Below are positions 2,713-22,648 of a stretch of DNA of 32,000 nucleotides, piece after piece. Numbering within the stretch: the first letter of the stretch is position 1; each line of letters begins with the position of its first letter. The stretch lies in assembly GCF_000189295.2 (NCBI RefSeq), contig NC_016803.1, forward strand, positions 3,420,001 to 3,452,000, read 5' to 3'. The translations under genes were made by a program, and so were the position numbers. Under the pieces are notes generated by a model, which did no database searches, was not told the DNA's origin, and worked only from the letters and a program-made list of their open reading frames with translations. The stretch is from Pseudodesulfovibrio mercurii. Lineage in GTDB: Bacteria; Desulfobacterota; Desulfovibrionia; Desulfovibrionales; Desulfovibrionaceae.

Positions 2713-2766
2713 GCGGGCCGGATCGGCGGGGCGCGGCCGTCCGGGGCGGATTGCGGACCTTTCGCG

Positions 2767-2806
2767 AAAAAGGGGCCGCCGGAGCATGTCTCCGGCGGCC
2801 CCTTGT
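2767..2806. terminator. Bidirectional intrinsic terminator between convergent genes
   Basis: A 13-bp perfect GC-rich stem pairs ggggccgccggag (2772-2784) with ctccggcggcccc (2790-2802) around a 5-nt loop. An A5 run sits on the left (a U-run for the minus-strand RND transcript) and ttgt on the right. Confidence 0.75.
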
Positions 2807-2814
2807 CGTGCGGG

Positions 2815-5925: not shown

Positions 5926-5927
5926 GG

Positions 5928-7019
5928 TCAGCCCTCCGACGCGGCCTTGAGCAGGCGGACCTTGCGGCCCTCCTCAAGGCTGTGCACGCCCCGGATGACG
6001 ATGATGTCGCCGTCCTCGATGCCGCCCTCGATCTCGACTCCGACCGGGGTGAGCTGGCCCACGCTGACGTCGCGCCGGGTCACGGTGGAGGTTTCGGGGT
6101 TCACCACCCAGACGGCGTGGGAGCCGTCGGGCTCGCCGACCACGGCCGCCGGGGGCAGGTAGAAGGCGGCCTTGGCGTGGCCCAGGCCGGTGAAGTTGAC
6201 GTGGCCGGACATGCCGCTGCGCACCATGCGGTCCGCGTTGTCCAGGTAGACCTTGACCGGGTAGGTGGAGCCCGTGCCGGACTCCACGCCGATCTCCTCC
6301 ACCTTGCCCCGCATGGTCCGGCCCGGCAGGGCGTCGAAGGCCACGGCCACCTCGTCCCCCTCCCCGACCTGGGCGATGAGGGTGTCGGGCACGGAGATGT
6401 ACATCTTCATCTGGCGGCCCGCGTTGTAGGTGGCGACGGCCTGGCCCGCGCTGACGTTCTGGTGCACGTCGGCCTCGACCTCACCGATCCAGCCCTCGAA
6501 GGGCGCGCGCAGGGTGGTGTAGCCCAGCCGCTTGCCGGCGATGTCGAGCTGCTTGGCCGAGGCGCTGAGCTGGGCCTCGTAGGACTTGAAGTCCGCCTCC
6601 ACCTGGTCCAGTTCGCCGCGCGAGATGACCCGGCCCTCGTACAGGCGGGTGTTGCGTTCGAGGTCCGCCTTGGCACGGACGTAGTTGGCCCGGACCTGCT
6701 CCATGTTGGCCCTGGCCTGCCGGAGCTCCAGCTCGTAGTCGGACGGGTCCAGGCGGGCGATGATTCCGCCCACGGCGAACTTGCGGCCGATCTGGTTGCC
6801 GGGAAATTCGACGATCTTGCCGCCCACGCGGAAGGAGAGCCGGGTGGCCAGGGCGTCCTCGGCCGTGCCCGCGAAGGACCACAGCTTGCTGCTGTCGGTG
6901 CGCACGGCGCGGGTGGTCCTGACCGGGCGGACGGGCTCGGGCACGGGCTCGGGCTTGCGGCCGCAGGCGGCGAGCAGGGTCAGGCAGAGCACGGCGGCGA
7001 GGGGGAGGAGGCGGTTCAT
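5928..7019 (-). CDS. RND efflux periplasmic adaptor (membrane fusion protein), lipoprotein
   Basis: The start was chosen at the ATG 7019-7017 (MNRLLPLAAVLCLTLLAAC, lipobox LAAC). Coiled-coil/lipoyl/beta-barrel-type sequence is present (ELELRQARANMEQVRANYVRAKADLERN). The upstream 64-aa extension of ORF 5928..7211 overlaps tetR and was rejected. Confidence 0.9.
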   Translation of the reverse strand: MNRLLPLAAVLCLTLLAACGRKPEPVPEPVRPVRTTRAVRTDSSKLWSFAGTAEDALATRLSFRVGGKIVEFPGNQIGRKFAVGGIIARLDPSDYELELRQARANMEQVRANYVRAKADLERNTRLYEGRVISRGELDQVEADFKSYEAQLSASAKQLDIAGKRLGYTTLRAPFEGWIGEVEADVHQNVSAGQAVATYNAGRQMKMYISVPDTLIAQVGEGDEVAVAFDALPGRTMRGKVEEIGVESGTGSTYPVKVYLDNADRMVRSGMSGHVNFTGLGHAKAAFYLPPAAVVGEPDGSHAVWVVNPETSTVTRRDVSVGQLTPVGVEIEGGIEDGDIIVIRGVHSLEEGRKVRLLKAASEG

Positions 7020-7699
7020 TGCATGTTCTCCATGGGGAGGCCGAGGAGCCCCCGGATGCGGGTCTTGACGATGGCTTCGATGGCCTCGATGTGTCCCTCG
7101 TAGGACGCCCAGCCCAGCCGCTTGCAGAGCAGGAACTGGCCTTCGAGGAGCTTGATGACGGTGTTGATGATCAGGTGGCCGGTGATGATCGCGTCGGTCT
7201 CGCCCAGGCAATGGGCGGCGGTCCCCCGGACCAGGGCGGCCAGGGCGTCCAGGTTGGGATTGAAGAAGGCCGCCTCCAGCTTGGGATAGAGCTCGGTGGG
7301 GTGGACCAGCTCGCGGGAGATGATGACCGTGCCCCAGACGTAGTCGGTGGGGCCCAGGAGCCCGTCCATGATGGTGCCCATGAACCAGTCCACGACCTCG
7401 CCCCTGGCCTCGGGGGTGGCGTCGGCGTCGGCCAGCCTGGCCTCGACCTCCTCAAGGGGCGGGAAGATCTGATCGCGGACGATGACGATCTCCCGGATGA
7501 TGGCCTCGTAGAGCCCGGACTTGCCGCCGAAATGGTAGCTCACGGTGGCCAGGTTGACCCCGGCCTCGGCGGCCAGGGTGCGCATGGACACGCCGTTGTA
7601 GCCGTTCTGGGCGAACAGCCGCGCGCCGGTCCGGAGCAGCGTGGCGCGCGTCTCCTCGCCCTGGGCCTGTCTGAGGGACTTGCGTCCTTTGCTGCTCAT
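7016..7699 (-). CDS. TetR/AcrR-family transcriptional regulator
   Basis: The N-terminal HTH reads TRATLLRTGARLFAQNGYNGVSMRTLAAEAGVNLATVSYHFGGK. GGAGG lies 6 nt upstream of the ATG at 7699. The stop overlaps the adaptor start as ATGA (7019-7016), so tetR-mfp-rnd look co-transcribed. Confidence 0.9.
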   Translation of the reverse strand: MSSKGRKSLRQAQGEETRATLLRTGARLFAQNGYNGVSMRTLAAEAGVNLATVSYHFGGKSGLYEAIIREIVIVRDQIFPPLEEVEARLADADATPEARGEVVDWFMGTIMDGLLGPTDYVWGTVIISRELVHPTELYPKLEAAFFNPNLDALAALVRGTAAHCLGETDAIITGHLIINTVIKLLEGQFLLCKRLGWASYEGHIEAIEAIVKTRIRGLLGLPMENMQ

Positions 7700-7739
7700 G
7701 CCTGCCTCCGGGGATGGTCTTCAGGGTGGAAAGAGTGCC

Positions 7740-7779
7740 TGTATACGCCCGCCCTCAACTCTTTGTCAAACGTTCGTTT
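7740..7779 (-). promoter_or_regulatory. Candidate sigma-70-type promoter for the tetR-mfp-rnd operon, with an overlapping small palindrome
   Basis: On the minus strand there is TTGACA (7769-7764), an 18-nt spacer and TATACA (7745-7740), about 40 nt upstream of the tetR ATG. The palindrome AAACG-TT-CGTTT (7768-7779) abuts and overlaps the -35 and is a possible TetR operator. This rests on motif match only. Confidence 0.35.
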
Positions 7780-7790
7780 AAGATATAATG

Positions 7791-7852
7791 AGGGGGACAG
7801 TATACCTAATTATTGCGACCCGAAGAGGTGGAGTTAGGTATACTGTCCCCCT
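7791..7852. repeat. 19-bp perfect inverted repeat with a 24-nt spacer
   Basis: The arm agggggacagtatacctaa (7791-7809) pairs with ttaggtatactgtccccct (7834-7852). It sits in a locally AT-rich intergenic stretch between the potD terminator and the tetR promoter. Confidence 0.85.
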
Positions 7853-7865
7853 AATTAGGCACACG

Positions 7866-7897
7866 CAAAAGAAAGGGCCGGACGCGGGGTCCGGCCC
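7866..7897 (-). terminator. Intrinsic terminator downstream of potD
   Basis: The stem gggccggac (7875-7883) pairs with gtccggccc (7889-7897) around a 5-nt loop. On the minus strand the hairpin is followed by TTTCTTTTG (complement of 7866-7874). Confidence 0.8.
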
Positions 7898-7926
7898 TTG
7901 GGGAGGCGGTGATGAGGGGGGCGGGG

Positions 7927-8961
7927 TTACTCGTTGGAGCCCTTGAGCTTGACCCAGTAGTCCTCGTAGGTCTTCATGGCCTCGCCGATGTCGTCCTGGA
8001 ACTCGCCGCGGGAGGCGGTGGTTGCGTCGGGGTAGACGATGGGGTTGTCGCGCACCTCGGCGGGCAGGAACTCGGAGGCCACCTCGTTGGGGGTGGAGTA
8101 GCCCATCTCGGTGGAGATGGCGGCGGCCACGTCCGGGCGCAGCAGGTAGTTCAGGAAGGTGTGCGCCTCATCCAGGTTCTTGGCCCCCTTGGGGATGCAC
8201 AGGGAGTCCATCCACAGGGAGAAGCCCTCCTTGGGGTAGACGTACTTGATCTCGGGGTTCTCCTGGTTGGCCACGTAGGCCTCGCCGTTCCAGATCACGC
8301 CCACGGCGACCTCGCCGGAGAGCAGGGCCTGCTTGGGCGAGTCGGAGTCGAAGACGCGGACGTAGGGCATGAGGCCCTTGAGCTTCTCGTAGGCCTGCTT
8401 GAGGTGGGCGGGGTCGGTGTCGTTCAGGGAGTAGCCCAGGCTCTTCAGGGCGATGGCGAAGACCTCGCGCGGGTCGTTGGGCAGGAGCAGACGGTCCTTC
8501 ATCTCCGGCTTCCAGAGGTCGGCGTAGGAGGTCACGGCGCTCTCGCCCAGGGTGCCGGTGTTCACGGCGATGGCCGTGGAGCCCCACATGTAGGGCACGG
8601 AGAAGGTGTTGTCCGGGTCGAAGGGCTGGTCCGTGAACTTGGCGGAGAGGTTGGGGAAGTTGGTCAGCTTGGACTTGTCCAGCGGCAGGAGCATGTCCTG
8701 GCGGCGCATGAGGCCCACGTAGTCGGACGAGGGCACGATGAGGTCGTAGCCTTCCCCGGCCAGCTTGATCTTGGCGTACATGGCCTCGTTGCTGTCGTAG
8801 GTGGAGATGTGCACCTTGATGCCGGTTTCCCTGGTGAAGTTCTCGACCACCTCGTCCGGGATGTATTCGGACCAGATGTACAGGTACAGCTCCCCGCTGC
8901 CGGCAAGGGCCGGGACCGCGAAGGCGAGGGTCAGGACGATTGCGAGCAGTAGCTTTTTCAT
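7927..8961 (-). CDS. potD: Spermidine/putrescine ABC transporter periplasmic binding protein
   Basis: The start was chosen at the ATG 8961 (MKKLLLAIVLTLAFAVPALA signal peptide). LYLYIWSEYIPDEVVENFTRETGIKV is typical of PotD/PotF. The start overlaps the potC stop as ATGA. The 118-aa upstream extension was rejected. Confidence 0.88.
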   Translation of the reverse strand: MKKLLLAIVLTLAFAVPALAGSGELYLYIWSEYIPDEVVENFTRETGIKVHISTYDSNEAMYAKIKLAGEGYDLIVPSSDYVGLMRRQDMLLPLDKSKLTNFPNLSAKFTDQPFDPDNTFSVPYMWGSTAIAVNTGTLGESAVTSYADLWKPEMKDRLLLPNDPREVFAIALKSLGYSLNDTDPAHLKQAYEKLKGLMPYVRVFDSDSPKQALLSGEVAVGVIWNGEAYVANQENPEIKYVYPKEGFSLWMDSLCIPKGAKNLDEAHTFLNYLLRPDVAAAISTEMGYSTPNEVASEFLPAEVRDNPIVYPDATTASRGEFQDDIGEAMKTYEDYWVKLKGSNE

Positions 8962-9725
8962 GACTTCTCCTTGAGCAGCCGCCGCGACAGGAGGACGGCG
9001 GCCACGGTTATAATGATCATCACCACGCTGAGCGCGTTGACGTCCGGCTTTATGCCGAGACGGACCATGGAATATATCCGCAGGGGCAGGACCTCGTAGG
9101 TCGGCCCCGTGGTGAAGAAGGAGACGATGACGTCGTCCAGCGACAGGGTGAAGCTCAGGAGCCACCCGGCGATGAGGCCGGGCGCGGCCATGGGCAGGAC
9201 GATGCGCCGGAAGACCTGGTACTCGGCGGCCCCGAGGTCGCGGGCGGCCTCGACCACGGTGGGGTCGAACCCCTTGAACCGGGCGTAGACCGTGGCCGTG
9301 ACGAACGGCACGCACAGGGTCACGTGGCCCATGAGCAGGGTCCAGAAGCCGAGCGACAGGCCGATGCCGAGGAAGAGGACCAGCAGGGAGATGCCGATGA
9401 CGATGTCCGGCGACATCATCATGACGAAGACCCCGGCGAAGACCGCGCGGCGGCCCTTGAAGCGGTACTGGTGGAGCATGAAGGCGGCCAGGGTGCCGAT
9501 GACGCAGGAGACCGTGGACGAGACCACGGCGATGGTCACGGAGCGCAGGGCCGCGTCAATCAGGGTGGTGCCCTGGATCAGCTCGCCGTACCAGCGCAGG
9601 GTGAACCCCTTCCAGGCCAGGGAGTACTTGGAGGCGTTGAAGGAGTAGACCGCGATGACGACCAGCGGCAGGTAGAGAAAGACGTAGACCAGGGCCGCGT
9701 AGACCCGCTTGACCCATATGTTCAT
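8958..9725 (-). CDS. potC: Spermidine/putrescine ABC transporter permease
   Basis: A 255-aa polytopic protein with the EAA loop EAARDLGAAEYQVFRRIVLPM. It overlaps the potB stop as ATGA (9725-9722). Confidence 0.88.
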   Translation of the reverse strand: MNIWVKRVYAALVYVFLYLPLVVIAVYSFNASKYSLAWKGFTLRWYGELIQGTTLIDAALRSVTIAVVSSTVSCVIGTLAAFMLHQYRFKGRRAVFAGVFVMMMSPDIVIGISLLVLFLGIGLSLGFWTLLMGHVTLCVPFVTATVYARFKGFDPTVVEAARDLGAAEYQVFRRIVLPMAAPGLIAGWLLSFTLSLDDVIVSFFTTGPTYEVLPLRIYSMVRLGIKPDVNALSVVMIIITVAAVLLSRRLLKEKS

Positions 9726-10562
9726 ATGCGCACCTTCCTTCCGGCCCGGCGCACGCTCTTGTAGTACAGGGCGAGCATCAGCCCCATGATGACGGTCATG
9801 GCGATGGAGGCCGCGGCCCCGAGCGGGATGTTGCGGGCCGCCAGGAACTGGTCGCGGATGTAGTTGCCGAGCAGCATGGTCCGCGCTCCGCCCAGGATGT
9901 CCGGGATGTAGAACATGCCCAGCGCGGGCAGGAAGACGAGCATGCAGCCCGAGACGATGCCGGGCATGGTCAGGGGCACGGTGATCTTGCGGAAGGTCGA
10001 GAAGCGGCTGGCCCCGAGATCGCGCGAGGCCTCCAGGAGCTTCAGGTCCAGCTTCTCGATGGCCGCGTAGAGCGGCAGGATCATGAACGGCAGCAGGGTG
10101 TAGACCAGGCCGATGAAGACCGCCGTGGGCGTGTACATGAGCTTGAGCGGCGCGTCGATGACCCCGAGGAAGAGCAGGAACTTGTTGACCACGCCGTCGG
10201 CCTTGAGCACGGCCACCAGGGCGTAGGTGCGGATGAGCGTGTTGGTCCAGAAGGGGATCATGACCAGCAGGAGCAGGGTCTTGGTGTACTTTTTGCCCGC
10301 CCGGGCCACGATGTAGGCGAAGGGGTAGCCGATGGCCAGGCAGAGCAGGGTGGCTGTGGCGGCCATGACCATGGACTCGGCCAGCATGGACCCCAGGGCG
10401 GGCTGGAGCAGCTCGCGGTAGCTGGCGAAGGACAGGACCGGCTCGATGAGGTCGTCCGGGTGGCGCTTGAGGAAGCTGACCGCCAGGAGCATGAGGGTGG
10501 GCACGGCCCCGAACAGGACCATCCAGCCGAGCACGCCGGTGACGACCAGCCGCTTGAACAGG

Positions 10563-10573
<11 letters not shown>
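9722..10573 (-). CDS. potB: Spermidine/putrescine ABC transporter permease
   Basis: A 283-aa polytopic protein with the EAA loop EASRDLGASRFSTFRKITVPL. It overlaps the potA 3' end by 11 nt. Confidence 0.88.
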
Positions 10574-11681
<1,108 letters not shown>

Positions 11682-11717: not shown

Positions 11718-12794
11718 TCAGGGCAGGACCACGGGCTGGAGCACAGCCGTGTCCGCCGGGACGGGAAGCGCGTGGCGGCGACGCAGTTTCGTTTTCAGGC
11801 ACTCGATGCCCGGGTTGAACAGGAGGTGGACCAATACGGCGGCCGCCAGCGCGACGGCCAGGACGTAGGCCCCCTCGGGGTCGTCCATGTAGGTCTCGAA
11901 CAGGGCGATGACGATGTAGTGGAGCAGGTAGAACGGATAGCTGACCTTGCCCGCGAACCGGTCCCATCGTAACCGTTTGAAGCCGCGAAAGACAAGGGGC
12001 ATGGTCAGCAGGGCCGCTCCGGGCAAAAGAAACGGCCGCAGGGGGCCGGCCGCGAGGTCGGCCGTCAGGGCCAGTCCGGCCAGGGCCGGGAAGAGCGCGT
12101 AGTCGTACCAGCGCGGGTCCGGGTCGAGCCGCCGGTGGGCGCGGTAGGCCAGGATGCCGCCCGCGAACAGCCAGAATTCCAGCGGGAAAAAGCGCTTGAA
12201 CAGGACCACGTCGGCCACCGGCGAGGCCATGACGGCCAGCTTGCAGGCCAGGCTTGCGCCCATGAGGGCGAGCAGGGTCCGGGTGCGCAGCCTGACCAGG
12301 AACGGGGCCAGGGCGTAGAAGGTCACCTCCAGGGACAGGGACCAGGCCTGGATGAGCGGGGCGTCGGACCACAGGGCCTCGCGGCTGCTGGTCACGAAGT
12401 ACAGGCCGCCCTCGGGGTGGCGGGCCAGGGAGAAGAGCAGCTCCTGGCCGACGGTGGTGGCCGAGGTCCAGGCCATGACCAGGAAGGCGGCGGGGTCGGT
12501 CATGATCGCCCGCAGGGTCTCCCGGTCGGTCAGGGAGTGGACGTCCAGGCTGGTCAGCAGCCCCAGGCTGACCACCAGGGCCAGGACGTACATGGGGTAC
12601 AGGGTCAGGAACCGGCTCAGGTAGAAGGCGCGGGCGCTGCCGTAGGTCCGATCCAGGATCAGGGCCATGTAGAAGCCGGAGATGGCGAAAAAGGTCAGCA
12701 CAGCCTCGTGGCCGTCCACCATGGGAAGGTTGTCGAAGGCCGTGAAGTGCGAGTTGAAGACCGCGAAGGCGAGCAGCAGGCGGATGAAGCCCAT
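11718..12794 (-). CDS. Acyltransferase family 3 (OafA/YrhL-like) integral membrane O-acyltransferase
   Basis: A 358-aa protein that is hydrophobic throughout. The N-terminus MGFIRLLLAFAVFNSHF...GHEAVLTFFAISGFYMALIL fits the acyltransferase-3 pattern. A perfect GGAGG lies upstream of the ATG at 12794. Confidence 0.75.
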   Translation of the reverse strand: MGFIRLLLAFAVFNSHFTAFDNLPMVDGHEAVLTFFAISGFYMALILDRTYGSARAFYLSRFLTLYPMYVLALVVSLGLLTSLDVHSLTDRETLRAIMTDPAAFLVMAWTSATTVGQELLFSLARHPEGGLYFVTSSREALWSDAPLIQAWSLSLEVTFYALAPFLVRLRTRTLLALMGASLACKLAVMASPVADVVLFKRFFPLEFWLFAGGILAYRAHRRLDPDPRWYDYALFPALAGLALTADLAAGPLRPFLLPGAALLTMPLVFRGFKRLRWDRFAGKVSYPFYLLHYIVIALFETYMDDPEGAYVLAVALAAAVLVHLLFNPGIECLKTKLRRRHALPVPADTAVLQPVVLP

Positions 12795-12812
12795 GGCGTT
12801 ACCTCCCTCTGC

Positions 12813-12837
12813 GGGAAACCGGACCGCTTTGGTCCGG
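12813..12837 (-). terminator. Weak hairpin / possible partial terminator between the SET gene and the acyltransferase gene
   Basis: On the minus strand, CCGGACC-AAAGC-GGTCCGG (12837-12819) is followed by only TTTCCC. A second short hairpin lies at 12850-12865. It may attenuate rather than terminate. Confidence 0.3.
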
Positions 12838-12883
12838 CGGGGTGTCGTACGCGGTTTTAACCGCGGCCATGCGCCTCAATCCT

Positions 12884-13528
12884 TCAGCCGTTGAACCCGA
12901 GCGGGACGGGCCTGAGGTTGTCGGGAGGGATCGCGGACGGGAGGGACGCGCCGTGGCGGCGCAGTCCGGCCACGGAGCGGTAGGGTTCCCCGCCGCAGAG
13001 ATAGGCGCGCAGCCGGTGCCTGGTCTCGTCGTCCATGAAGGCCATGAGGGGCTGGTGGACGTCGGCCACGCGGGACAGGGCGTCCCGGATGAGCCCGTCC
13101 CAGGCCGCGTGGTACCGTTCCAGGTCGTCGGGGTGCAGGGCCTTGCGGCAGCGGGTGCAGCCGCAGTCGAGGGGGATGTCCCGGCCCAGGTCGAACAGGC
13201 CGTATTCCTCGCTGATCTCCTGCCCCTTCCAGATGTCCCGCACCGCGATCTCGAAGCCGTAGGCCGTGGCCATGACGTTGGCGTCGCAGCGGTGATTGAC
13301 GTAGCGCGCGTTGTCGCGGCTGACGACGTGCACGCCGGACTCGTCGGCGTAGACGGTCTTGCCGAGGTCGCGGACCCGGTCGGGCCGGTTGGCCGCGCGG
13401 GCGGCGTAGGCCGCCTCAAGCGGGTCGCGGACGTAGACGATGGTGCCCCGCGGGATGTCCCCGGCGGCGATCACGCCGTACCCGATGGTCGGATCGACGA
13501 AGCGCACTTCGGTCATGGGATGCATCAT
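12884..13528 (-). CDS. SET-domain protein (putative protein-lysine methyltransferase) with a post-SET-like Cys cluster
   Basis: The GxG-type N-SET motif is GYGVIAAGDIPRGTIVY. The core is RYVNHRCDAN (compare the canonical NHSCxPN). The Tyr motif is GQEISEEYG, followed by DCGCTRCR (CxCxxC). Candidate starts are GTG 13537 and ATG 13528, 13525 and 13516; ATG 13528 was chosen because of the GGGAG upstream. Confidence 0.8.
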   Translation of the reverse strand: MMHPMTEVRFVDPTIGYGVIAAGDIPRGTIVYVRDPLEAAYAARAANRPDRVRDLGKTVYADESGVHVVSRDNARYVNHRCDANVMATAYGFEIAVRDIWKGQEISEEYGLFDLGRDIPLDCGCTRCRKALHPDDLERYHAAWDGLIRDALSRVADVHQPLMAFMDDETRHRLRAYLCGGEPYRSVAGLRRHGASLPSAIPPDNLRPVPLGFNG

Positions 13529-13582
13529 GGGAATCACCGCTCCCGCCGGGGCGGGAGCACGCTCGAGGTCGTCGGAACCGGA

Positions 13583-13855
13583 TTACCAGTCCTCGTCGGT
13601 GTCGTAGTCGATCTCGTCTTCCAGGGTGTAGCTGCGCACCTTGATGCGCAGCTGGTCCTCGTCCTCCACCACGACGCCTTCGGCGGTGACCCACCTGTCG
13701 ATGTACTCGATCAGGCTCTCGCCGTTCTCGTCGGGCTCGACGATGAACTCCTCCTCGCCGTCCACCAGCAGCACGACGCCGGATACGGTCTCATCATCCC
13801 AGTCCAGGGGGAGTATCTGTCCGAACAGGGAATCCTCATATACGTCGGTAGCCAT
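13583..13855 (-). CDS. Hyper-acidic small protein, no recognised family
   Basis: The 90-aa protein has 15 Asp and 15 Glu against 3 Arg and 1 Lys (counted from the translation). The C-terminal tip is LEDEIDYDTDEDW. GGGAG lies upstream of the ATG at 13855, 12 nt after the GNAT stop. It is similar to the 94-aa protein (PxxWD[DE]...VL[IL]...E.E.F[IV]VE...GVV...V.S[FY]T). Confidence 0.7.
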   Translation of the reverse strand: MATDVYEDSLFGQILPLDWDDETVSGVVLLVDGEEEFIVEPDENGESLIEYIDRWVTAEGVVVEDEDQLRIKVRSYTLEDEIDYDTDEDW

Positions 13856-13867
13856 TTTCTCCCGCTC

Positions 13868-14431
13868 CTATTGGTAGTTGTTGTCCGCGTCGTCTTCGTC
13901 GATGTTCAGCCGGTAGACCAGTCCGCCCTCCATGGGGATGAACTGCTTGCAGAACCGGTGCTGCACCGAGAAGCCGTTGGCCTCGTAGAACCGGCGGGCG
14001 TTCTCGAAGGCGCGCCCCTCGCCGGTCTCCAGGAACACGGATTTTCCCGTTTCCGCCGCCGCCCGGCGGATCATCTCGGCCACCAGGGCCGAGCCGATGC
14101 CCAGCCTGCGGAACTCGGGGTCCACGGTGATGCCGTAGAGCTCGTATTCGCCGGGCCAGTACATGATCGGGCCGTAGCAGACGAAGCCGATGATTCGCTC
14201 TCCGGCCCCGTCGTCGGCCTTGGCCAGGAGGAAGGTCTGGGCCTCCTCTCCGTTGCCGTAGGCGCAGTCCCAGGCCATGTCCTCGGCGGACAGCATGGCG
14301 TCGGCCGAAAACAGCCCGCTGGAGGCGGCCATGTTCAGGATGGTTTCCACGTCTTCGGGCGTGATGCCCGAGGAGATGCGGACCTCGCGCATGTCCTCGC
14401 GGACGCCTTCTTCTCTGGTTGTCGTGTCCAT
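13868..14431 (-). CDS. GNAT-family N-acetyltransferase
   Basis: The start was chosen at the ATG 14431 (MDTTTREEG...). Motif A is YGITVDPEFRRLGIGSALVAEMIRRA and the C-terminal motif is ARRFYEANGF. The 57-aa upstream extension overlaps the preceding gene and was rejected. Confidence 0.85.
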   Translation of the reverse strand: MDTTTREEGVREDMREVRISSGITPEDVETILNMAASSGLFSADAMLSAEDMAWDCAYGNGEEAQTFLLAKADDGAGERIIGFVCYGPIMYWPGEYELYGITVDPEFRRLGIGSALVAEMIRRAAAETGKSVFLETGEGRAFENARRFYEANGFSVQHRFCKQFIPMEGGLVYRLNIDEDDADNNYQ

Positions 14432-14457
14432 GGTGATCTCGAGGCCGTGCAGGCCCG

Positions 14458-14808
14458 TCAGGCGAGGGTCTTCGACCGCCCGCCGCGTTGCAGGTTCATG
14501 GAGGTGTAATTCATCGACGAGGTGTCGCCGACGACCTCGATGGTATCGACATTGATGGTTTCGATACCCAGGGAGTTCGTCGCCGTGCCGGTGACCTCGC
14601 AAGTCCGGCCCTCCAGGGTGGAGGGGTCCTGCTTCACGCCGAGAAGCAGGTATTCCGTGTCGCCGTCCTTGAGGACCAGGCCGAAATCGGTGTTGACCAC
14701 CAGTCCCCAGACGGTCACGGCCTCGTCCGCGGCCGAAGCCGGGGCGGACAGGGCGGGAACGAGACAGAGAACTGCGGCCAGAAGCAAGGGAATCAGTTGC
14801 TTACGCAT
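14458..14808 (-). CDS. Secreted small protein (Sec signal peptide), paralog-like to the two neighbouring small proteins
   Basis: The signal peptide is MRKQLIPLLLAAVLCLVPALSAPASA|ADE (AxA site). The mature part is VTVWGLVV...DGDTEYLLLG...CEVTGTA...INVDTIEVV. The ATG lies 3 nt after the upstream stop, with AGGA 8 nt upstream. Confidence 0.7.
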   Translation of the reverse strand: MRKQLIPLLLAAVLCLVPALSAPASAADEAVTVWGLVVNTDFGLVLKDGDTEYLLLGVKQDPSTLEGRTCEVTGTATNSLGIETINVDTIEVVGDTSSMNYTSMNLQRGGRSKTLA

Positions 14809-14811
14809 GGG

Positions 14812-15096
14812 CTATCCTGAGATGTTGTTTTCCACGGGGGTGAAGCTCTCCACGACCATGGACTCCACACCGCGTTCCTTGCGGACGACGCCGGTGAAGA
14901 CCGCCTCCGTCCTGGACAGGGACAGGAGGTTCGGGAGGCTCTTGAAGTTCTCCACGAAGATTTCCCGCTCGTCCTTGCAGGCGATCAGCACCTCGGTCAC
15001 GCGGAACTGCTCGTCCCACTGGCGCGGGACGACCATGCCCCTGACGGTGACCGTGTCGTTTCGGTGTTGTTCCTCTTGCAGCATCGCTCTTCTCAA
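14812..15096 (-). CDS. Small cytoplasmic protein, no recognised family; first gene after the sigma-54 promoter
   Basis: The ORF track starts at TTG 15096; an in-frame ATG at 15084 (MLQEEQHRND...) is at least as likely. The sequence is VTVRGMVVPRQWDEQFRVTEVLIACKDEREIFVEN...FTGVVRKERGVESMVVESFT. Confidence 0.6.
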   Translation of the reverse strand: MRRAMLQEEQHRNDTVTVRGMVVPRQWDEQFRVTEVLIACKDEREIFVENFKSLPNLLSLSRTEAVFTGVVRKERGVESMVVESFTPVENNISG

Positions 15097-15122
15097 CCGG
15101 GTGGTTTTGAAGTGGCAGGAAA

Positions 15123-15138
15123 AGCATGGAGCATGCCA
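15123..15138 (-). promoter_or_regulatory. Sigma-54 (-24/-12) promoter
   Basis: The minus strand reads TGGCATGCTCCATGCT, with GG and GC separated by the canonical 12-nt register (consensus TGGCACG-N4-TTGCW). It lies 27-40 nt upstream of the first ORF start and directly downstream of a sigma-54 activator gene. Confidence 0.7.
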
Positions 15139-15154
15139 AATCCATAATTATCTG

Positions 15155-15167
15155 AAATTCTTTGATA
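15155..15167 (-). promoter_or_regulatory. IHF-like site between the palindrome and the sigma-54 promoter
   Basis: The minus strand reads TATCAAagaaTTT against the consensus WATCAANNNNTTR (last base mismatched). It sits in an AT-rich tract at the position expected for a DNA-bending site. Confidence 0.3.
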
Positions 15168-15191
15168 AAATCATTCACCGTCAGAACAATT

Positions 15192-15212
15192 ACAGGAATT
15201 TTATATTCCTGT
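15192..15212. promoter_or_regulatory. 21-bp perfect palindrome, candidate enhancer (UAS) for the sigma-54 activator
   Basis: ACAGGAAT-tttat-ATTCCTGT has 8-bp arms. It lies 54-74 nt upstream of the -24 element, inside a 258-nt AT-rich non-coding island (15097-15354). Confidence 0.45.
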
Positions 15213-15354
15213 TTTTCGCCATGCCGGTCGGCAGGTTCGGGATAGCCTTCATTTTCGGGCCTGATGGGTGCTGAGGTGACATGAATAAACATCATATAAT
15301 CAGCATGTTGCAATTGAAAAAGAATTTTTTGTTCCGATATGGCCAAAAACGGAA

Positions 15355-16755
<1,401 letters not shown>

Positions 16756-17194: not shown

Positions 17195-20100
17195 CTAGCT
17201 CCACCTTATCAATCTGGGGTCGCACTTGCTTGCCAACCCCGGATGCGTCGGGAGGACGCGGACGCCGTAGCGCACGAGCCCGGACTCGGCCGGGCTGTAG
17301 GTGGCCCGGTAGAGCAGGGTGGAGCCCTCGGTGTGCTTGAGCTGCATGGGGATGCAGTCCACCACGGTCTCCTCGTCCGGGGTGGCGGCCACGAATTCGA
17401 CCACGATCTCCTCGGTCAGCAGCTGGCCCCGGTCCACCTTGGCCGAGACCGTCAGCCGGTTGCCCAGGCGGAAGACGTCGCCGCTGATGCCCTCCACCTT
17501 GACCTCCTTGATGTTCACGGTGGCGAAGCGGCCGGGGATGCGCGTGCGCCATTCGCCCAGGCCCAGGGCCAGTTCGTTGTTGTTCTTGGCGCGCAGCTTG
17601 GACAGCTCTATGGCGGGCAGGTACATGTCGTCGATGTAGTCCCGGACCATGCGGTGGGTGCCATACTGGCGGAAGGCGGTCTGCATGGACGCCTTCATGC
17701 GTTGCAGCCAGGCGTGGGGCACGCCGTCGCCGCCCCGGTCGTAGAACTCGGGGACCACCTCGGATTCCAGGGTGGCGTACAGGTTGTCCGCGTCCACGAT
17801 GTCCTGGTTGACCTGGCTCTGGTAGACCAGGCCGCTGCCCACGGCCCAGCCGTTGGTACCGTCGAAGGCCTCGTCCCACCAGCCGTCCAGGATGGAGCAG
17901 TTGGGCACGCCGTTGACCGCGGCCTTCATGCCGCTGGTGCCGCTGGCCTCCATGAGCCGGGTGGGGTTGTTCAGCCAGACGTCCGCGCCGGACACGAGCA
18001 GCCGCGCCAGGCGGATGTCGTAGCTCTCCAGGAAGATGACCCGGCCCAGGAAGTCGTCCTGCTTGGCCAGCCGGCAGATGAGGTTGATGTAGCTCGCGCC
18101 CATGGTGTCGGCCGGGTGGGCCTTGCCCGCGAAGATGATGTTCACCGGGCGATCGGCCTTGGTCAGGATCTCCTTGATCCGCTGGAGGTTGTGGAAGATC
18201 AGGGTGGGCCGCTTGTAGGCCGTGCAACGCCGCGCGAAGCACAGGGTCAGGTGGTCCGGGTTGAGCTCGTTCAGGAAGGCGTGCAGCCGGTTGGGCGGTT
18301 CGCCCTCGCGGGTCCACTGGGCGGCGATGGAGCGGCGCACCTCGTCATAGAGGCGGTGCTTGAGGGCCACGTGGGTGTCCCACAGCCGCCGGTCGTCCAG
18401 GCCGTCCAGGCAGCCCCAGTCGGTCTTTTCCAGGAGCTGGCGGTGTACGGACATGCTGCACGACTCCTCGATGTCGTGGCGGACGCGCTCGTCCAGCCAG
18501 GAGGTGATGTGCACGCCGTTGGTCACGTGGCCCACCGGGACCTCGCTCAGGATGAAGCCGCGCCACAGATCCTGCCACATGCGCCGGGACACGTCGCCGT
18601 GCAGGCGGGAGACGCCGTTGCGCTTGCAGGAGAGCTGCAGGGCCAGCACGGTCATGTTCAGGTGGTCGGCCTCCTCGGCGTAGATGTGCCCGAGGTTCCA
18701 CAGCCCGTCCCAGGGCACGCCCATCTCGTCGGCGTAGCCCCGGAAGTAGTTCTCCACCAGGGACTTCTCGAACCGTTCGTTGCCCGCGGGCACGGGGGTG
18801 TGCATGGTGAACACGGTGTTGCCCCGGACGATCTCCTTGGCCGTGGGGAAGTCCACCCCGTCCAGGAGCATGAGCTGGCGGATGCGCTCGAAGAGCAGGA
18901 AGGCGGAGTGGCCCTCGTTGAGGTGGTAGACCGACGGGACGATGTCCAGGGCGGTGAACAGCCGGATGCCGCCCACGCCGAGGATGATCTCCTGCTCGAT
19001 GCGGCCCTTGGAGGTCGGGTCGTAGAGCTTGGAGGTGATGTCCCGGTCCGAGCGGGAGTTCTCGACCACGTCCGTGTCGAGCAGGTAGAGCCTGGCCCGG
19101 CCCACGTGGACCTCCCATATCTGGGCGTACACGGTGCGGCCCGGCAGGTCCACGGTGATCATGACCTTTTCGTCGTTCCGCTGGAGCGGGGTGATGGGCA
19201 TGGTGGCGAAGTTGTTCTCGTGGTACTCGACCACCTGGTCCCCGTTGCCGTTGATGCGCTGGTGGAAGAAGCCGTTCTTGTACAGCAGGGAGATGCCGAT
19301 GAACGGCAGGTTCAGGTCGCTGGCCGACTTGATGTGGTCGCCGGAGAGCAGGCCCAGGCCGCCGGAGTAGACCGGGATGGCCTCGTGCAGGCCGAACTCC
19401 ATGGAGAAGTAGGCCACCGGGTTCTTCCAGGTGATGCCCCTGACGTCGGCCTTGGCGCTCTCGGCCATGTAGGCGTCGAACCGCTCCAGAACCGAGTTCA
19501 GGCGGCCGATGAATTCCGGGTCGTCGGCCAGTTCGGCCAGCCGGTCGCGGCGCATGGTGTCCAGGAACAGGACCGGGTTGTGGCCGCTCTCGTGCCATTT
19601 GTCCGCGTCCATCCATTCGAACAGCTCCTGGGAGTCGCGGTGCCAGACCCACCAGAGATTTTCGGCCACGTCGCGCAGCCGGGCCAGGGGCGCGGGCAGC
19701 TCGGTGACCACGGTGAAGGACCGCAGCCTCGGCTGGGTCGTGTTCACGCCCGAGAAGCTGATCTCCGCGCCGGGCGCGGCGACCATGCGCTGCACGCCCG
19801 CGATGCGTTCGGTGCGGATGTCGGCCGCGTACTCGTAGGCCTCCAGGTAGCGGGGATAGAAGTGGGCCCAGGTGGCCTCCTCGGCGATCTTGCGGGCCTC
19901 CTTGCTGCGAGAGACGCGCTCCTCGGGCGTCCAGCGGGTGAAGTCCGAGAGGTAGAGGGCCAGGTTCTCGCGCGCGGTCTCGTAGTCGTCCTCCAGCCGG
20001 TTGAGGACGTGCACGCCGGGGTGTCCCTGGGGGTGCCGCTCCATGATCCACTGGCCGAAGCCGGCCCGGTCCGAGGTCACCGTGGGCACGGCGAAGGCCG

Positions 20101-21433
20101 CGCTCTCCATGGGGGTGTAGCCCCACGGTTCGTAGAAGGACGGGAACACGGTCAGATCCATGCCCGCCAGGGCGTCGTAGTATTCCAGGTTGAGCACGCC
20201 GTCGTTGCCGTCCAGGTAGACCGGGATGAAGATGACGCAGCAGCGGTTCACGGCCTCGTTGTCCAGCTTGCGCTCGCGGCACTTCATGACCACGGGGTCG
20301 TGGTCCGCGTCGCCCAGGTGGTGGGTGGAGATGCCCGCGTACTTCTCGATGTCGTAGCGCTCCTGCTTGAGGCGGCGCCGGGCCTCGTCGCTGAAGCCCG
20401 CGTAGCCGCAGGAGACGAGCAGGAAGGCGACCACGGTGACGTCCTTGCCGGACTTGGCCAGCTCCTCGTTCAGGTCGCCCAGCCCGTCCAGGAGCAGGTC
20501 GATGCCCTTGTTGTGGAATTCGTAGCGTCCGGAGGTCGCCACCAGCAGGGTCTTGGCCGGGTCCAGGTCCCGTTCGAGGAAGTTGGCGGCCAGGTCCAGG
20601 AGCTGCTTGCGCGAACGTTTGCGGGTCTGGGCCACGGCCGTGGGGTCGGCGAACCCATCGAGGTTGAAGCCGTTGACCGTGACCACGGCCGGGTTGGTGC
20701 CGAGAAGGTTGGAGGCCTCGCGCCGGGTGATGTTGGAGACCGTGGTGAAGCAGTCCGCCTCGCGGGCCGAGACCGACTCCATGGAGTGCTTGGCCGTGAC
20801 CCCGTAGGCCTTGGCCTCCTGGGACGGCTCGATCTCTTCGAGCCGCTTGTAGATGTCCACGCCCGCCCCGGACATGGCCCGGCCGAGCATGGTGGCGTGG
20901 GTGGTCAGGACCGTGGACACCGAGGGCGCGTGCTTCTTCAGGTGGAGCACGCCCGCCCCGGACATCCACTCGTGGAAGTGGGCGTAGACGTCGGCCCCTT
21001 CGCCCACGTCCTCGCTGATTTCCTTGATGGCCATGGCCGCGGCCGTGGAGAACAGGACCGGTTCGATGTAGTCCCAGCCTCCGGCCATGGAATCCACGCC
21101 ATAGTCGTTCCACAGCTGGAACAGGAGCTTGTCGTGGGCCGGGAAGGCGTTGCGGAAGCCGATGAGCAGGACCAGCGGCTTGCCCGGGATGTCCCACTGG
21201 CCGGTGGCGGTCTCGATGCCCCAGGCCTTGAGCCGTTCCAGGGCCGGGCGGACCGTGTCGGGCGGATCGGAGGGCAGGAACCCGGGGTTGCGGTCGAGCA
21301 GCGGACCCACGGCCACGTAACGGTTGTCGAAGGCCGCCTTGGCCTGCGGGGCCTTGCTGCTTATGACGGTGTAGATGCCGCCGACCTTGTTGCACACTTC
21401 CCAGGAAACTTCGAACAGCCAGCTTTTATCCAT
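17195..21433 (-). CDS. Fusion protein: N-terminal GT3 (eukaryote-type) glycogen synthase plus C-terminal GT35 alpha-glucan phosphorylase (DUF3417-type)
   Basis: The ORF is a single uninterrupted 1412 aa. The N-terminus has LFEVSWEVCNKVGGIYTVISSKA and FPSFYEPWGYTPMES (an E-X7-E-type motif). From about aa 570 there is LPAPLARLRDVAENLWWVWH, then VAYFSMEFGLHEAIPVYSGGLGLLSGDHIKSASD, then the PLP-Lys motif EASGTSGMKAAVNG. AGGAG overlaps the GH57 stop 12 nt upstream of the ATG. Confidence 0.85.
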   Translation of the reverse strand: MDKSWLFEVSWEVCNKVGGIYTVISSKAPQAKAAFDNRYVAVGPLLDRNPGFLPSDPPDTVRPALERLKAWGIETATGQWDIPGKPLVLLIGFRNAFPAHDKLLFQLWNDYGVDSMAGGWDYIEPVLFSTAAAMAIKEISEDVGEGADVYAHFHEWMSGAGVLHLKKHAPSVSTVLTTHATMLGRAMSGAGVDIYKRLEEIEPSQEAKAYGVTAKHSMESVSAREADCFTTVSNITRREASNLLGTNPAVVTVNGFNLDGFADPTAVAQTRKRSRKQLLDLAANFLERDLDPAKTLLVATSGRYEFHNKGIDLLLDGLGDLNEELAKSGKDVTVVAFLLVSCGYAGFSDEARRRLKQERYDIEKYAGISTHHLGDADHDPVVMKCRERKLDNEAVNRCCVIFIPVYLDGNDGVLNLEYYDALAGMDLTVFPSFYEPWGYTPMESAAFAVPTVTSDRAGFGQWIMERHPQGHPGVHVLNRLEDDYETARENLALYLSDFTRWTPEERVSRSKEARKIAEEATWAHFYPRYLEAYEYAADIRTERIAGVQRMVAAPGAEISFSGVNTTQPRLRSFTVVTELPAPLARLRDVAENLWWVWHRDSQELFEWMDADKWHESGHNPVLFLDTMRRDRLAELADDPEFIGRLNSVLERFDAYMAESAKADVRGITWKNPVAYFSMEFGLHEAIPVYSGGLGLLSGDHIKSASDLNLPFIGISLLYKNGFFHQRINGNGDQVVEYHENNFATMPITPLQRNDEKVMITVDLPGRTVYAQIWEVHVGRARLYLLDTDVVENSRSDRDITSKLYDPTSKGRIEQEIILGVGGIRLFTALDIVPSVYHLNEGHSAFLLFERIRQLMLLDGVDFPTAKEIVRGNTVFTMHTPVPAGNERFEKSLVENYFRGYADEMGVPWDGLWNLGHIYAEEADHLNMTVLALQLSCKRNGVSRLHGDVSRRMWQDLWRGFILSEVPVGHVTNGVHITSWLDERVRHDIEESCSMSVHRQLLEKTDWGCLDGLDDRRLWDTHVALKHRLYDEVRRSIAAQWTREGEPPNRLHAFLNELNPDHLTLCFARRCTAYKRPTLIFHNLQRIKEILTKADRPVNIIFAGKAHPADTMGASYINLICRLAKQDDFLGRVIFLESYDIRLARLLVSGADVWLNNPTRLMEASGTSGMKAAVNGVPNCSILDGWWDEAFDGTNGWAVGSGLVYQSQVNQDIVDADNLYATLESEVVPEFYDRGGDGVPHAWLQRMKASMQTAFRQYGTHRMVRDYIDDMYLPAIELSKLRAKNNNELALGLGEWRTRIPGRFATVNIKEVKVEGISGDVFRLGNRLTVSAKVDRGQLLTEEIVVEFVAATPDEETVVDCIPMQLKHTEGSTLLYRATYSPAESGLVRYGVRVLPTHPGLASKCDPRLIRWS

Positions 21434-21445
21434 GGCTTTTTTCTC

Positions 21446-22648
21446 CTACCCCTGCCGCCTGTCCGAACCGTCCAGCCGGAGGGCGAGGTCGTTGAGCACG
21501 TTCATGTAGGTAATGAACGCCTGATGCGGGGTGTCGTACGGGTTGAAGTACTTGTGCACGTCGCCGTCGGAAAACCACTTGGTGCACATGTAGTAGAAAT
21601 GGTCGCTGGTCAGCAGCTCCCGCCAGGTGGCGATGATGTCCTCGTCCCCTGAATCCAGAACCTTGTCTTCCAGGGCGTAGGCCAGTTCGGCGGCCTGGTC
21701 CTGCATGGGGTTGCCCAGCCAGGCGGTCACGTCGCGTTCCAGGTCGGCCCAGGAGGTGAAGTAGGGCACGTCGAGCTGGGCCATGGGGTCCAGGTGCGCG
21801 GCGGCCTCGCCCGGGGTCTCGAAGACGAAGTCGTCCCGGGACAGGATCGCCTCGGGCAGCTTGCGGAAGAACTCGAAGATGCCGGTGTCGGCCCACTGGT
21901 GCTCGCCGATGGTCTCGTAGTCCATGAACAGGTTGATGATCTCGCCGCTGCCCGCCACCTTGTGGACCCAGTCCGCGTATTTTTCCACGGTCACGGGCCA
22001 CTCGCTCCACCCCCGGTCCGAGAAGCGGAAGGCCACGTCGTCGGACAGACGGTAGTTCTTGAGCAGGGCCTTGAGCTTGGAGCAGCCCGCGGGCTGGTAC
22101 ACGAAGTTGGGCGAGCGCCAGCCCAGGACCTGGTCCGCGCCCTCGGCCAGGACGGCCCGGTAGCCCATCTTCTCGATCTCCTGGGCCAGGTCGTTGCTGT
22201 AGATCAGCTCGGTGTTGCGGAAGGTCACGGGTTTGGTCCCGAAGAACTCCTCCAGGATGCGGCTGTGCATCTTGACCTGGCGGCGGAACTCCTCCTTGGA
22301 GAAGAGGAAGGCCAGGGAGTGGTAGTGGGTCTCGCCGATGAACTCCACGCAGCCGGTATCGGCCAGGGCCCGGAAGGTTTCCAGGACCTCGGGGCAGAAC
22401 TCCTGGAACTGCTCCATGGCCACGCCGGTGATGGCGTAGGAGATGCGGAACCTGCCCTGGTGTTGCTCGATGAGGTCGAGCATCATCCGGTTGGCGGGCA
22501 GGTAGCACTTTTCGGCCACCTTGCGCATGATGTCGCGGTTGGCGGCCTCGTCGCGGTAGTGGTGGCTGCGGCCCATCTGGAAGAAGGAATAGCTCTTGTC
22601 CAGCCGCATGGGCTGGTGGACCTGGAAGTAGAAGCAGACGGAAATCAT
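21446..22648 (-). CDS. Glycoside hydrolase family 57 protein (alpha-amylase-type)
   Basis: The start was chosen at the ATG 22648 (MISVCFYFQVHQPMRL, which carries the HQP region). Other motifs are GCVEFIGETHYH, FRNTELIY (candidate nucleophile Glu), MDYETIGEHQW (candidate acid/base Asp) and LTSDHFYYM. The start overlaps the upstream stop as ATGA. Confidence 0.8.
   Translation of the reverse strand: MISVCFYFQVHQPMRLDKSYSFFQMGRSHHYRDEAANRDIMRKVAEKCYLPANRMMLDLIEQHQGRFRISYAITGVAMEQFQEFCPEVLETFRALADTGCVEFIGETHYHSLAFLFSKEEFRRQVKMHSRILEEFFGTKPVTFRNTELIYSNDLAQEIEKMGYRAVLAEGADQVLGWRSPNFVYQPAGCSKLKALLKNYRLSDDVAFRFSDRGWSEWPVTVEKYADWVHKVAGSGEIINLFMDYETIGEHQWADTGIFEFFRKLPEAILSRDDFVFETPGEAAAHLDPMAQLDVPYFTSWADLERDVTAWLGNPMQDQAAELAYALEDKVLDSGDEDIIATWRELLTSDHFYYMCTKWFSDGDVHKYFNPYDTPHQAFITYMNVLNDLALRLDGSDRRQG

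Follow-up and report, generated by a model that had tools for sequence, protein, structure and literature searches.

We analyzed a 32-kb window (32,000 nucleotides; positions 3,420,001 to 3,452,000 of contig NC_016803.1) from the genome of Pseudodesulfovibrio mercurii ND132, a genetically tractable model strain for mercury methylation, where the genes DND132_3079–3084 make up the front part of a putative sigma-54 operon. On the minus strand, a gene for a sigma-54 activator is followed by a 270-bp AT-rich intergenic region and then by genes for a cytoplasmic mini-protein (P1), a small secreted protein (P2sec), a GNAT N-acetyltransferase, a hyper-acidic mini-protein (P4), a SET-domain methyltransferase, and a membrane acyltransferase (Acyl_transf_3), and by potA, potB, potC, and potD (Table 1). 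The five genes from P1 to SET are separated by about 3, 23, 12, and 45–54 nt. Exact protein look-up identified P4 as DND132_3080 and P2sec as DND132_3082, both of which are annotated as hypothetical, and a literature search found no papers containing the locus tags DND132_3079–3084. Neither Rfam families nor tRNAs were found in the window.

Table 1 Features of the sigma-54 module and the genes that follow it in the P. mercurii ND132 window (coordinates count from the first nucleotide of the window).
Feature	Coordinates	Strand	Evidence and remarks
Sigma-54 enhancer-binding activator	15355..16755	-	Degenerate N-terminal receiver, AAA+ domain with GAFTGA, Fis-type helix-turn-helix (HTH)
UAS1 enhancer palindrome	15351..15365	.	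Exact match to GGAAY-N5-RTTCY; conserved block; overlaps the end of the activator gene
UAS2 enhancer palindrome	15321..15335	.	Exact match to GGAAY-N5-RTTCY; conserved in alignment
UAS3 enhancer palindrome	15195..15209	.	Perfect inverted repeat GGAATATAAAATTCC; the palindrome noted initially
Predicted sigma-54 -24/-12 promoter	15123..15138	-	TGGCATGCTCCATGCT; GG-N10-GC spacing; 5' of the first gene, P1
P1, 90-aa cytoplasmic OB-fold mini-protein	14812..15084	-	AlphaFold2 model, family HMM
P2sec, 116-aa secreted small beta-protein	14458..14808	-	Accessory gene; signal peptide, ASA|AD
GNAT N-acetyltransferase	13868..14434	-	Core gene; Pfam; net charge -17
P4, 90-aa hyper-acidic OB-fold mini-protein	13583..13855	-	Core gene; AlphaFold2 model; net charge -26
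SET-domain methyltransferase	12884..13537	-	Accessory gene; likely start ATG 13528; post-SET Cys cluster
Acyl_transf_3 membrane acyltransferase	11718..12794	-	Frequent accessory gene; Pfam 72.5 bits
potABCD spermidine/putrescine importer	7927..11681	-	NCBIfam
potA	10563-11681	-
potB	9722-10573	-
potC	8958-9725	-
potD	7927-8955	-
Intrinsic terminator after potD	7873..7899	-	11-bp stem, 8 GC pairs, T-rich tail

The initial annotation, which was made from the window alone, placed a -24/-12 promoter, an upstream palindrome, and a dedicated activator gene ahead of the first gene, and all of these calls were confirmed. The promoter has exact spacing and was the sole sigma-54 promoter match in the window. 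Because at least one such match also arose in 21 of 100 shuffles, a single match is not rare in itself, and the significance of the site comes from its invariance: TGGCA-N7-TGCT was retained in all 18 orthologous activator–P1 intergenic regions that we aligned from other genomes. The palindrome proved to be one of three GGAAY-N5-RTTCY sites. Four exact strand matches to this motif were found where 0.29 were expected, a number reached in none of 100 shuffles. The sites fall within the range of about 70–250 bp from the promoter that is typical of upstream activator sequences. All three were conserved in the 18-region alignment, with the GAA/TTC positions of UAS3 being invariant, and motif clusters occurred in the same intergenic region of other loci. 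The activator would bind to these GGAAY-N5-RTTCY sites, and transcription from the promoter is predicted to be driven by sigma-54 and the activator.

The activator matched Sigma54_activat (PF00158; 231 bits), AAA_lid_14, and HTH_8 (26 bits), and its translation contains the GAFTGA motif. Its receiver, comprising the N-terminal 125 residues, scored 20 bits against the Pfam Response_reg model (cut-off 30), with 'TRDG' in place of the DD pocket and 'YLTHP' in place of the conserved Lys, which is replaced by His, Arg, or Ser. No histidine kinase was conserved beside the activator across the module loci, where an adjacent kinase was seen only in L001. The receiver is therefore probably non-phosphorylatable, and an NtrC-type phospho-accepting response regulator was rejected for want of the acidic pocket, the conserved Lys, and a conserved kinase neighbor. 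A degenerate receiver without a conserved kinase fits regulation of the activator through a ligand or a partner protein. A paper on the sigma-54 regulome of Desulfovibrio vulgaris Hildenborough (DvH) did not mention a polyamine or acetyltransferase regulon.

The product of the first gene of the operon, previously given as 94 aa, is most likely 90 aa long, because the orthologue alignment favors a start at the ATG at 15084. The description of P4 as a 90-aa hyper-acidic protein held, with 30 Asp and Glu residues versus 4 Lys and Arg residues. P1 and P4 were related in pairwise BLASTP (E = 4e-4) and matched a single family hidden Markov model (HMM) at 1e-12 to 1e-26 in every locus. Their AlphaFold2 models showed a barrel of five strands, the third and fourth of which are linked by a helix. 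The model of P1 (predicted local distance difference test score, pLDDT, of 85) had a b1–b3/short helix/b4–b5 topology, and that of P4 (pLDDT 73) had an oligonucleotide/oligosaccharide-binding (OB) fold, after which residues 82–90 form a disordered tail. The top Foldseek matches of both models were all generic OB folds, including RPA32/14, Stn1/Ten1, SSB, the LysRS N-domain, and YgiW, with template modeling (TM) scores of 0.5–0.6 and E-values of about 1e-3 to 1e-2. As modeled, P1 and P4 are OB folds, and we refer to them and their relatives as mini-OB proteins.

The P4 homologues formed 46 clusters at 90% identity. The acidic-aromatic tail of P4 ends in DEDW, its C-terminal Trp was invariant in 23 sequences, and an 'LVDGEEEF' motif was kept in the orthologues. 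The protein contains no Cys, and in this lineage its N-terminus is acidic and free of Lys, and its only Lys is not invariant. In P1, Cys36 is invariant within a 'VTE(V/I)LIAC..ERE' block that the wider family lacks, and this residue could have a redox, metal, or thioester role. Word-seeded homologue searches with P4, P1, and the GNAT gave almost no named matches beyond Pseudodesulfovibrio, Salidesulfovibrio, and Maridesulfovibrio, and the wider mini-OB family was revealed only by an exhaustive profile search, which recovered 128 representatives (50% identity) of 80–135 aa at E <= 1e-3. The family had essentially no match and no model in Pfam, and its profile found no sequence homologue in the PDB. 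In the family representatives (P0078–P0204), the short N-terminal tails that precede the barrel are 23% Lys, versus 6% in the remainder of the protein. Long Asp/Glu tails interspersed with Trp, Tyr, or Phe are present in about one third of the members, and some members have signal peptides. When P1 and P4 were compared between loci, no Lys residue tracked the presence of SET and no C-terminal difference tracked that of RimK. In searches of Pfam, NCBIfam, PADLOC, the PDB (by sequence), and papers, we found no description of the mini-OB family, of a P1-GNAT-P4 cassette, or of the regulon.

The initial annotation had counted three paralogous mini-proteins. The kinship of P1 and P4 stands, while that of P2sec is weak: its BLASTP match to P1 had an E-value of 0.022, and hhalign gave a probability of 9.7% against the mini-OB family. 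P2sec scored 21.2 bits against DUF5818 (PF19135; cut-off 27), a model that matched four of seven P2sec orthologues at E <= 0.1, all sub-threshold and at best 2e-5. A signal-peptide mini-OB protein that occupies the operon position of P2sec in a distant locus, L110, is an unambiguous family member (hhalign 98.6%), and it aligned to the P2sec profile with a probability of 52%. Because a bona fide secreted member is found at the same operon position, P2sec is plausibly a divergent secreted paralogue of the mini-OB proteins.

Both enzyme calls passed the HMM check. The GNAT scored 57.2 bits against Acetyltransf_1 (PF00583; cut-off 20.7), contains the acetyl-CoA motif 'RRLGIGSAL', and has 2r7h as its closest PDB entry; a SpeG model was not among its NCBIfam matches. 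The SET protein scored 36.2 bits against PF00856 (cut-off 22.4). Its motifs 'RYVNHRCDAN' (NHxC), 'EISEEYG', and 'DCGCTRCRK' (CxCxxC) aligned to the SET and post-SET regions of KMT2C, and its best PDB matches were KMT2C, KMT2D, and KMT2A of the MLL family. The N, H, and Y residues and three Cys residues were invariant in eight orthologues.

The operon was initially drawn as ending at 12884 with the SET gene. This is probably not the end of the operon, and the transcript probably runs on past SET through Acyl_transf_3 and potABCD to the terminator at 7873–7899, which was the only strong terminator-like site 3' of the promoter on the minus strand outside coding sequence. Between 7500 and 17200, no sigma-70-like sites were found outside the activator–P1 intergenic region. 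The importer genes were identified by NCBIfam equivalog scores of 544 for PotA (cut-off 482), 365 for PotB (348), and 380 for PotC (326), and the PotD model was the best match of the potD product, at 396 against a cut-off of 582. The 89-nt spacer between SET and Acyl_transf_3 (12795–12883, minus strand) holds two possible GC-rich hairpins, one of which is followed by UUUCCC. These hairpins were not significantly stable compared to shuffles (z = -1.8), so no terminator was called in the spacer; it could be a weak attenuator.

To define the conserved unit, we surveyed 24 module loci, consisting of the window, three genomic contexts of P4 homologues, 16 loci from GTDB genomes, and four metagenome loci, in which gene presence was mapped by tblastn and blastp. 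The activator was present in every locus except L018, which is cut off upstream. GNAT and P4 were found in all 24, and P1 in 22 of the 23 loci besides the window, being undetected in L019. The SET gene was adjacent in 12 of the 24 (in L009 it is distal and on the opposite strand), and P2sec was present in eight, every one of them SET-containing. Not counting the window, Acyl_transf_3 lay 3' of P4 or SET on the module strand in 11 loci; in L011 and L017, a copy is found 3' of potABC but on the other strand. The potABC(D) genes were downstream in 13 loci besides the window; in L001 and L017, where SET is missing, potA begins 12–21 nt after P4. RimB and RimK were inserted in seven loci, both in L003, L010, L011, L012, L015, and L016, whereas in L026 only RimB is seen, where the contig is cut. 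Genes for SpeA, a carboxynorspermidine-synthase-like protein, and agmatinase come after the module in L009.

The activator shared 70–92% identity with that of the window in most of the module loci. Identity was 56% in L019 and 51–52% beside distant mini-OB genes, and the activator is far more conserved than the cargo genes. Locus L019, in a metagenome-assembled genome labeled Acidaminobacter (a Firmicute), has the order activator-GNAT-P4 at 5701–8273. It shares the sigma-54 promoter and the enhancer sites, and no P1 was detected there. Either the regulatory cassette was transferred horizontally as a whole, or the sequence was binned wrongly.

The five genes first proposed as a module are thus not co-conserved, as SET was adjacent in only half of the loci, P2sec was present in a third, and most SET homologues had no mini-OB gene nearby (see below). 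The comparison shows that the stable predicted unit is the activator, its enhancer sites, the sigma-54 promoter, and one or more acidic OB mini-proteins. In the Pseudodesulfovibrio/Maridesulfovibrio lineage the stable cassette, as mapped by gene presence, is P1-GNAT-P4, with SET, the secreted paralogue, Acyl_transf_3, and RimB/RimK as lineage-specific inserts.

The contexts of more distant mini-OB family members, anecdotal and drawn from nine distinct loci, include similar arrangements. In L110, an orthologous activator 51% identical to that of the window, the enhancer motif seen there, and a sigma-54 promoter that matches perfectly precede acidic and secreted mini-OB genes, which are followed by AdoMet-decarboxylase-like, Acetyltransf_6, ATP-grasp, and Orn/Lys/DAP-decarboxylase-like genes. 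L107 and L108 have an activator of 52% identity, one enhancer site, and a sigma-54 promoter before an acidic mini-OB gene, and in L109 a sigma-54 promoter likewise precedes an acidic mini-OB gene, while the activator gene is fragmented. In L103, two mini-OB genes, a perfect sigma-54 promoter, and the enhancer motif occur with a fusion of a class-I methyltransferase and an ATP-grasp domain and with deoxyhypusine-synthase fragments. GGAAY-N5-RTTCY occurs there in three clusters (1187–1333, 4831–4845, and 8096–8243), which, together with the two mini-OB genes, suggests a multi-operon regulon of an orthologous activator. Judging from these contexts, the predicted regulatory cassette is shown to predate the five-gene set and to be more widely distributed. 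Its variable cargo, as annotated, is dominated by genes that serve to transport or synthesize polyamines/diamines and by genes for enzymes that modify amines or proteins.

Three further mini-OB genes (L020, L021, and L022) have no adjacent activator. In L020, an acidic mini-OB gene is found with genes for a CxxCxxCC protein, SET, HU, GNAT, and an M20 peptidase, the HU gene lying between SET and GNAT. In L022 an acidic mini-OB gene is followed by SET, and in L021 by a lysine-2,3-aminomutase-like gene. The SET proteins of L020 and L022 were 17–20% identical to that of the window and the GNAT of L020 was 22% identical to its counterpart; they belong to other subfamilies and were rejected as orthologues. 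The co-occurrence is thus convergent (analogous) rather than inherited or syntenic. The initial suspicion that SET and GNAT enzymes act together with an acidic mini-protein gains support from these two distant members, which adjoin SET genes of a subfamily other than that of the window. CxxCxxCC (PF03692) Cys-cluster proteins are encoded directly after the acidic mini-OB gene in two unrelated loci, L002 (6267–7022) and L020 (5378–6112). PF03692 includes the flagellin lysine-N-methylase FliB, and the CxxCxxCC proteins might stand in functionally for SET.

To place the SET gene in a wider context, we scanned metagenomes with the window SET and obtained 80 homologues of 34–78% identity. In 76 of these, no mini-OB gene was nearby, and the module was found only with the four closest. 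Four others (L067, L068, L076, and L082) lie directly 3' of genes for fusions of about 650–680 aa between a RimI-like GNAT and a RimK-family ATP-grasp domain, which is a second, independent association of SET, GNAT, and a ligase. One homologue (L033) adjoins RimK-RimB and an activator, three follow C39-like peptidases, and most others had no recognizable partner. A review of bacterial SET proteins did not cover their operon context.

Our preferred reading, which we hold tentatively and which may well prove wrong, is that the activator and the acidic OB proteins form a cassette that keeps polycations (polyamines) in homeostasis and carries a variable cargo of enzymes that modify amines or proteins. 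Once the activator is switched on, PotABCD would import spermidine or putrescine, and the acidic GNAT would N-acetylate either the imported polyamine or a related amine, or else a protein to which a polycation is bound. The acidic-aromatic surfaces of P1 and P4, and the tail with its invariant C-terminal Trp, would be the binding sites for the polycation; the two proteins would thereby hold it and act as a buffer or hand-off partner for the enzymes, possibly with feedback on the activator. SET, where present, would provide an N-methylation step on some target. The extreme acidity of P4 and the GNAT implies a cationic ligand, and the polyamine link is drawn because it was seen independently in several lineages, in the contexts of potABC(D), L009, L103, L110, and L021.

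Several observations weigh against polyamine homeostasis. The biochemical functions of the module proteins are putative, and polyamine binding by the OB fold of P1 and P4 is suggested by charge and conserved Asp, Glu, Trp, and Tyr residues only. Co-transcription with the importer genes is probable, yet it would have to cross the 89-nt, hairpin-capable gap between SET and Acyl_transf_3, and potABCD was not within 8 kb in L002, L008, L009, L010, L013, L014, and L019. A PaiA-type spermidine/spermine N-acetyltransferase was rejected for the GNAT (NF053587, 12.5 bits versus 250), and its best NCBIfam match was RimI (TIGR01575). SET domains are by precedent protein lysine methyltransferases, and RimK of L011, which has a RimB-like partner, exceeded the S6-glutamate-ligase equivalog cut-off.

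These last points favor protein over small-molecule substrates, as the RimK score and the SET precedent both indicate, and they lead to a serious though somewhat unlikely alternative, in which the RimI-like GNAT and SET, joined in relatives by RimK/RimB, modify a basic protein of the ribosome or nucleoid, the acidic OB proteins are electrostatic adaptors or chaperones that present the substrate, and polyamine import is merely co-regulated, given the functional coupling of polyamines and the ribosome. The RimB and RimK inserts in seven module loci, the SET homologues beside GNAT-RimK fusions and RimK-RimB, the MLL-like SET with its post-SET motif, and the HU gene between SET and GNAT in L020 are consistent with it. 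However, RimK/RimB and SET are each missing in about half or more of the module loci, no gene for a basic substrate candidate is conserved in the module, and the polyamine-metabolism context recurs more widely than a ribosomal or nucleoid one. The GNAT also scored 42.6 bits against TIGR01575, under the cut-off of 86.4, and the RimI (S18 N-terminal acetyltransferase) equivalog was rejected. A stricter form of protein modification was proposed initially: a fixed, chromatin-like module with an acetyl-writer, a methyl-writer, and an acidic histone-chaperone-like mimic acting on the nucleoid. The verified SET and GNAT, the acidic mini-OB genes beside SET in three independent contexts with two SET subfamilies, and HU in one of these contexts speak for it. 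The five-gene set is restricted to one subclade, most SET homologues occur without the module, and no nucleoid-protein gene was present in the window or the 23 related module loci. The recurrent context is instead polyamine/diamine transport and biosynthesis and ATP-grasp ligases, so the analogy was not borne out and we regard this version as very improbable.

Other alternatives concern the role of the mini-OB proteins themselves. That they are primarily regulators, with P1, P4, or both binding the pseudo-receiver as an anti-activator or co-sensor and the enzymes being regulated cargo, is quite unlikely in our estimate. Small first-gene products are known to feed back on sigma-54 activators, as PspA does on PspF and HycA on FhlA. 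Here, the activator and a mini-OB protein are the deepest conserved pairing, the mini-OB gene comes first after the promoter, the receiver is degenerate without a conserved kinase alongside, and the activator is far better conserved than the cargo. Contact of P1 or P4 with the activator is nevertheless putative, the mini-OB genes of L020, L021, and L022 have no adjacent activator, and a secreted paralogue would be unable to touch a cytoplasmic activator; a regulatory role is also compatible with polyamine homeostasis and does not exclude it. It is decidedly improbable that the mini-OB proteins are substrates or carriers, with Lys-rich N-tails that are methylated or acetylated, acidic C-tails extended by RimK, or amines built on the C-terminus as on LysW, whose tail is EDWGE. 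ATP-grasp ligases, methyltransferases (SET, the class-I methyltransferase–ATP-grasp fusion, CxxCxxCC proteins), and GNATs do recur beside acidic mini-OB genes, the N-tails of the family are enriched in Lys, and the invariant D-x-W end of P4 after an acidic tail recalls that of LysW. The N-terminus of P4, however, is acidic and Lys-free with a single non-invariant Lys elsewhere, no Lys of P1 or P4 tracks SET, the terminal residue is Trp rather than Glu, the fold is OB rather than a Zn-ribbon, and the window has no ATP-grasp genes. A GNAT toxin-antitoxin pair or an anti-phage defense island, which the small acidic protein beside the GNAT superficially resembles, is effectively refuted, since none of the five proteins had a PADLOC match, no ribbon-helix-helix (RHH) or DUF1778-type antitoxin partner was found, and the genes keep a stable syntenic chromosomal position with potABCD under sigma-54 control.

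Within polyamine homeostasis, a bolder version, which we consider unlikely, makes the acidic OB mini-proteins a new polycation-handling class, acting either as polyamine sensors that gate the pseudo-receiver activator in the style of antizyme or as scaffold or carrier proteins for amine modification. If the latter were true, amines would undergo acetylation, SET-dependent methylation, and ligation by ATP-grasp enzymes on or beside the mini-OB proteins, and a SET enzyme would serve small-molecule or polyamine chemistry and not chromatin. The components, namely a sigma-54 activator regulon, a GNAT, a SET protein, and PotABCD, are of known kinds, and the chance that the mini-OB proteins work by a new mechanism is moderate.

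Parts of this arrangement resemble known systems. Polyamine transporters are paired with acetyltransferases in Escherichia coli (PotABCD with SpeG) and in the blt-bltD operon of Bacillus subtilis. In the window, an importer with PotA, PotB, and PotC above their cut-offs is likewise co-located, and probably co-transcribed, with a GNAT. Unlike in those pairings, this GNAT is not of the SpeG, PaiA, or BltD family, control is by sigma-54 and an activator, and the module has two obligatory OB mini-proteins with SET, RimK, and Acyl_transf_3 as optional genes. Sigma-54 systems with a small first-gene feedback partner include PspF-PspA, FhlA-HycA, and ZraR-ZraP, with which the window has in common that a small protein is the first product and that its -24/-12 promoter is served by enhancer palindromes and an activator of its own; in this comparison, too, the window activator stands without a functional phospho-receiver. 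The small proteins of the window, unlike PspA, HycA, and ZraP, are unrelated OB folds.

LysW-type carriers are Zn-ribbon proteins of about 55 aa with LysX/Z/Y/J/K neighbors. As for LysW, some module and mini-OB loci have RimK/LysX-family ATP-grasp neighbors. The identity of P4 as a LysW amino-group carrier was rejected, because P4 is a 90-aa OB fold with no Zn-ribbon, no Cys, and no EDWGE terminus. P4 resembles the OB folds of SSB and RPA in having a small OB barrel and a disordered acidic tail with an aromatic end, but at a net charge of -26 it is far too acidic and, unlike them, would not bind nucleic acid. The window SET shares the SET fold, the NHxC motif, the catalytic Tyr motif, and the post-SET Cys cluster with eukaryotic MLL/KMT2 SET proteins and with known bacterial ones (PMC3980110). 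Unlike the known ones (PMC3980110), it is encoded in a free-living sulfate reducer within a putative sigma-54/polyamine operon and is not a pathogen effector; its subfamily mostly occurs outside the module. RimABK of Pseudomonas is a polyglutamylation system for ribosomal protein S6, and loss of rimK in P. fluorescens raised the abundance of a putrescine transporter (PMC4741518, PMC7343187, PMC11957791). RimK and RimB orthologues are inserted in the module of several relatives, whereas the window has no rimK or rimB and no RimA or cyclic di-GMP component, and the mini-OB proteins and the GNAT are foreign to RimABK.

The pseudo-receiver activator, the GGAAY-N5-RTTCY sites, and the Pfam-less OB family form a testable unit that recurs across lineages with differing polyamine/diamine cargo. 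We know of no dedicated regulator of polyamine homeostasis in anaerobic sulfate reducers, where the subject is poorly understood. For SET enzymes of free-living bacteria, whose substrates are largely obscure, the module provides a genetic context of acidic mini-OB proteins, GNATs, and RimK-family ligases, and it narrows the search for SET targets to basic proteins or polyamines.

The remaining genes of the window that we inspected lie outside the predicted transcript. Downstream of the potD terminator (1153–7699, minus strand), a TetR-family regulator (7016–7699), a resistance-nodulation-division (RND) efflux adaptor (5928–7211), and large further open reading frames are encoded, and the TetR and RND genes appear unrelated to the module. 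A 1412-aa fusion is encoded at 17195–21433 (minus strand), in which an alpha-glucan phosphorylase (residues 673–1273; TIGR02094, 772 bits) follows a glycogen-synthase-like N-terminal region, and a GT4 glycosyltransferase gene is located at 22645–23931.

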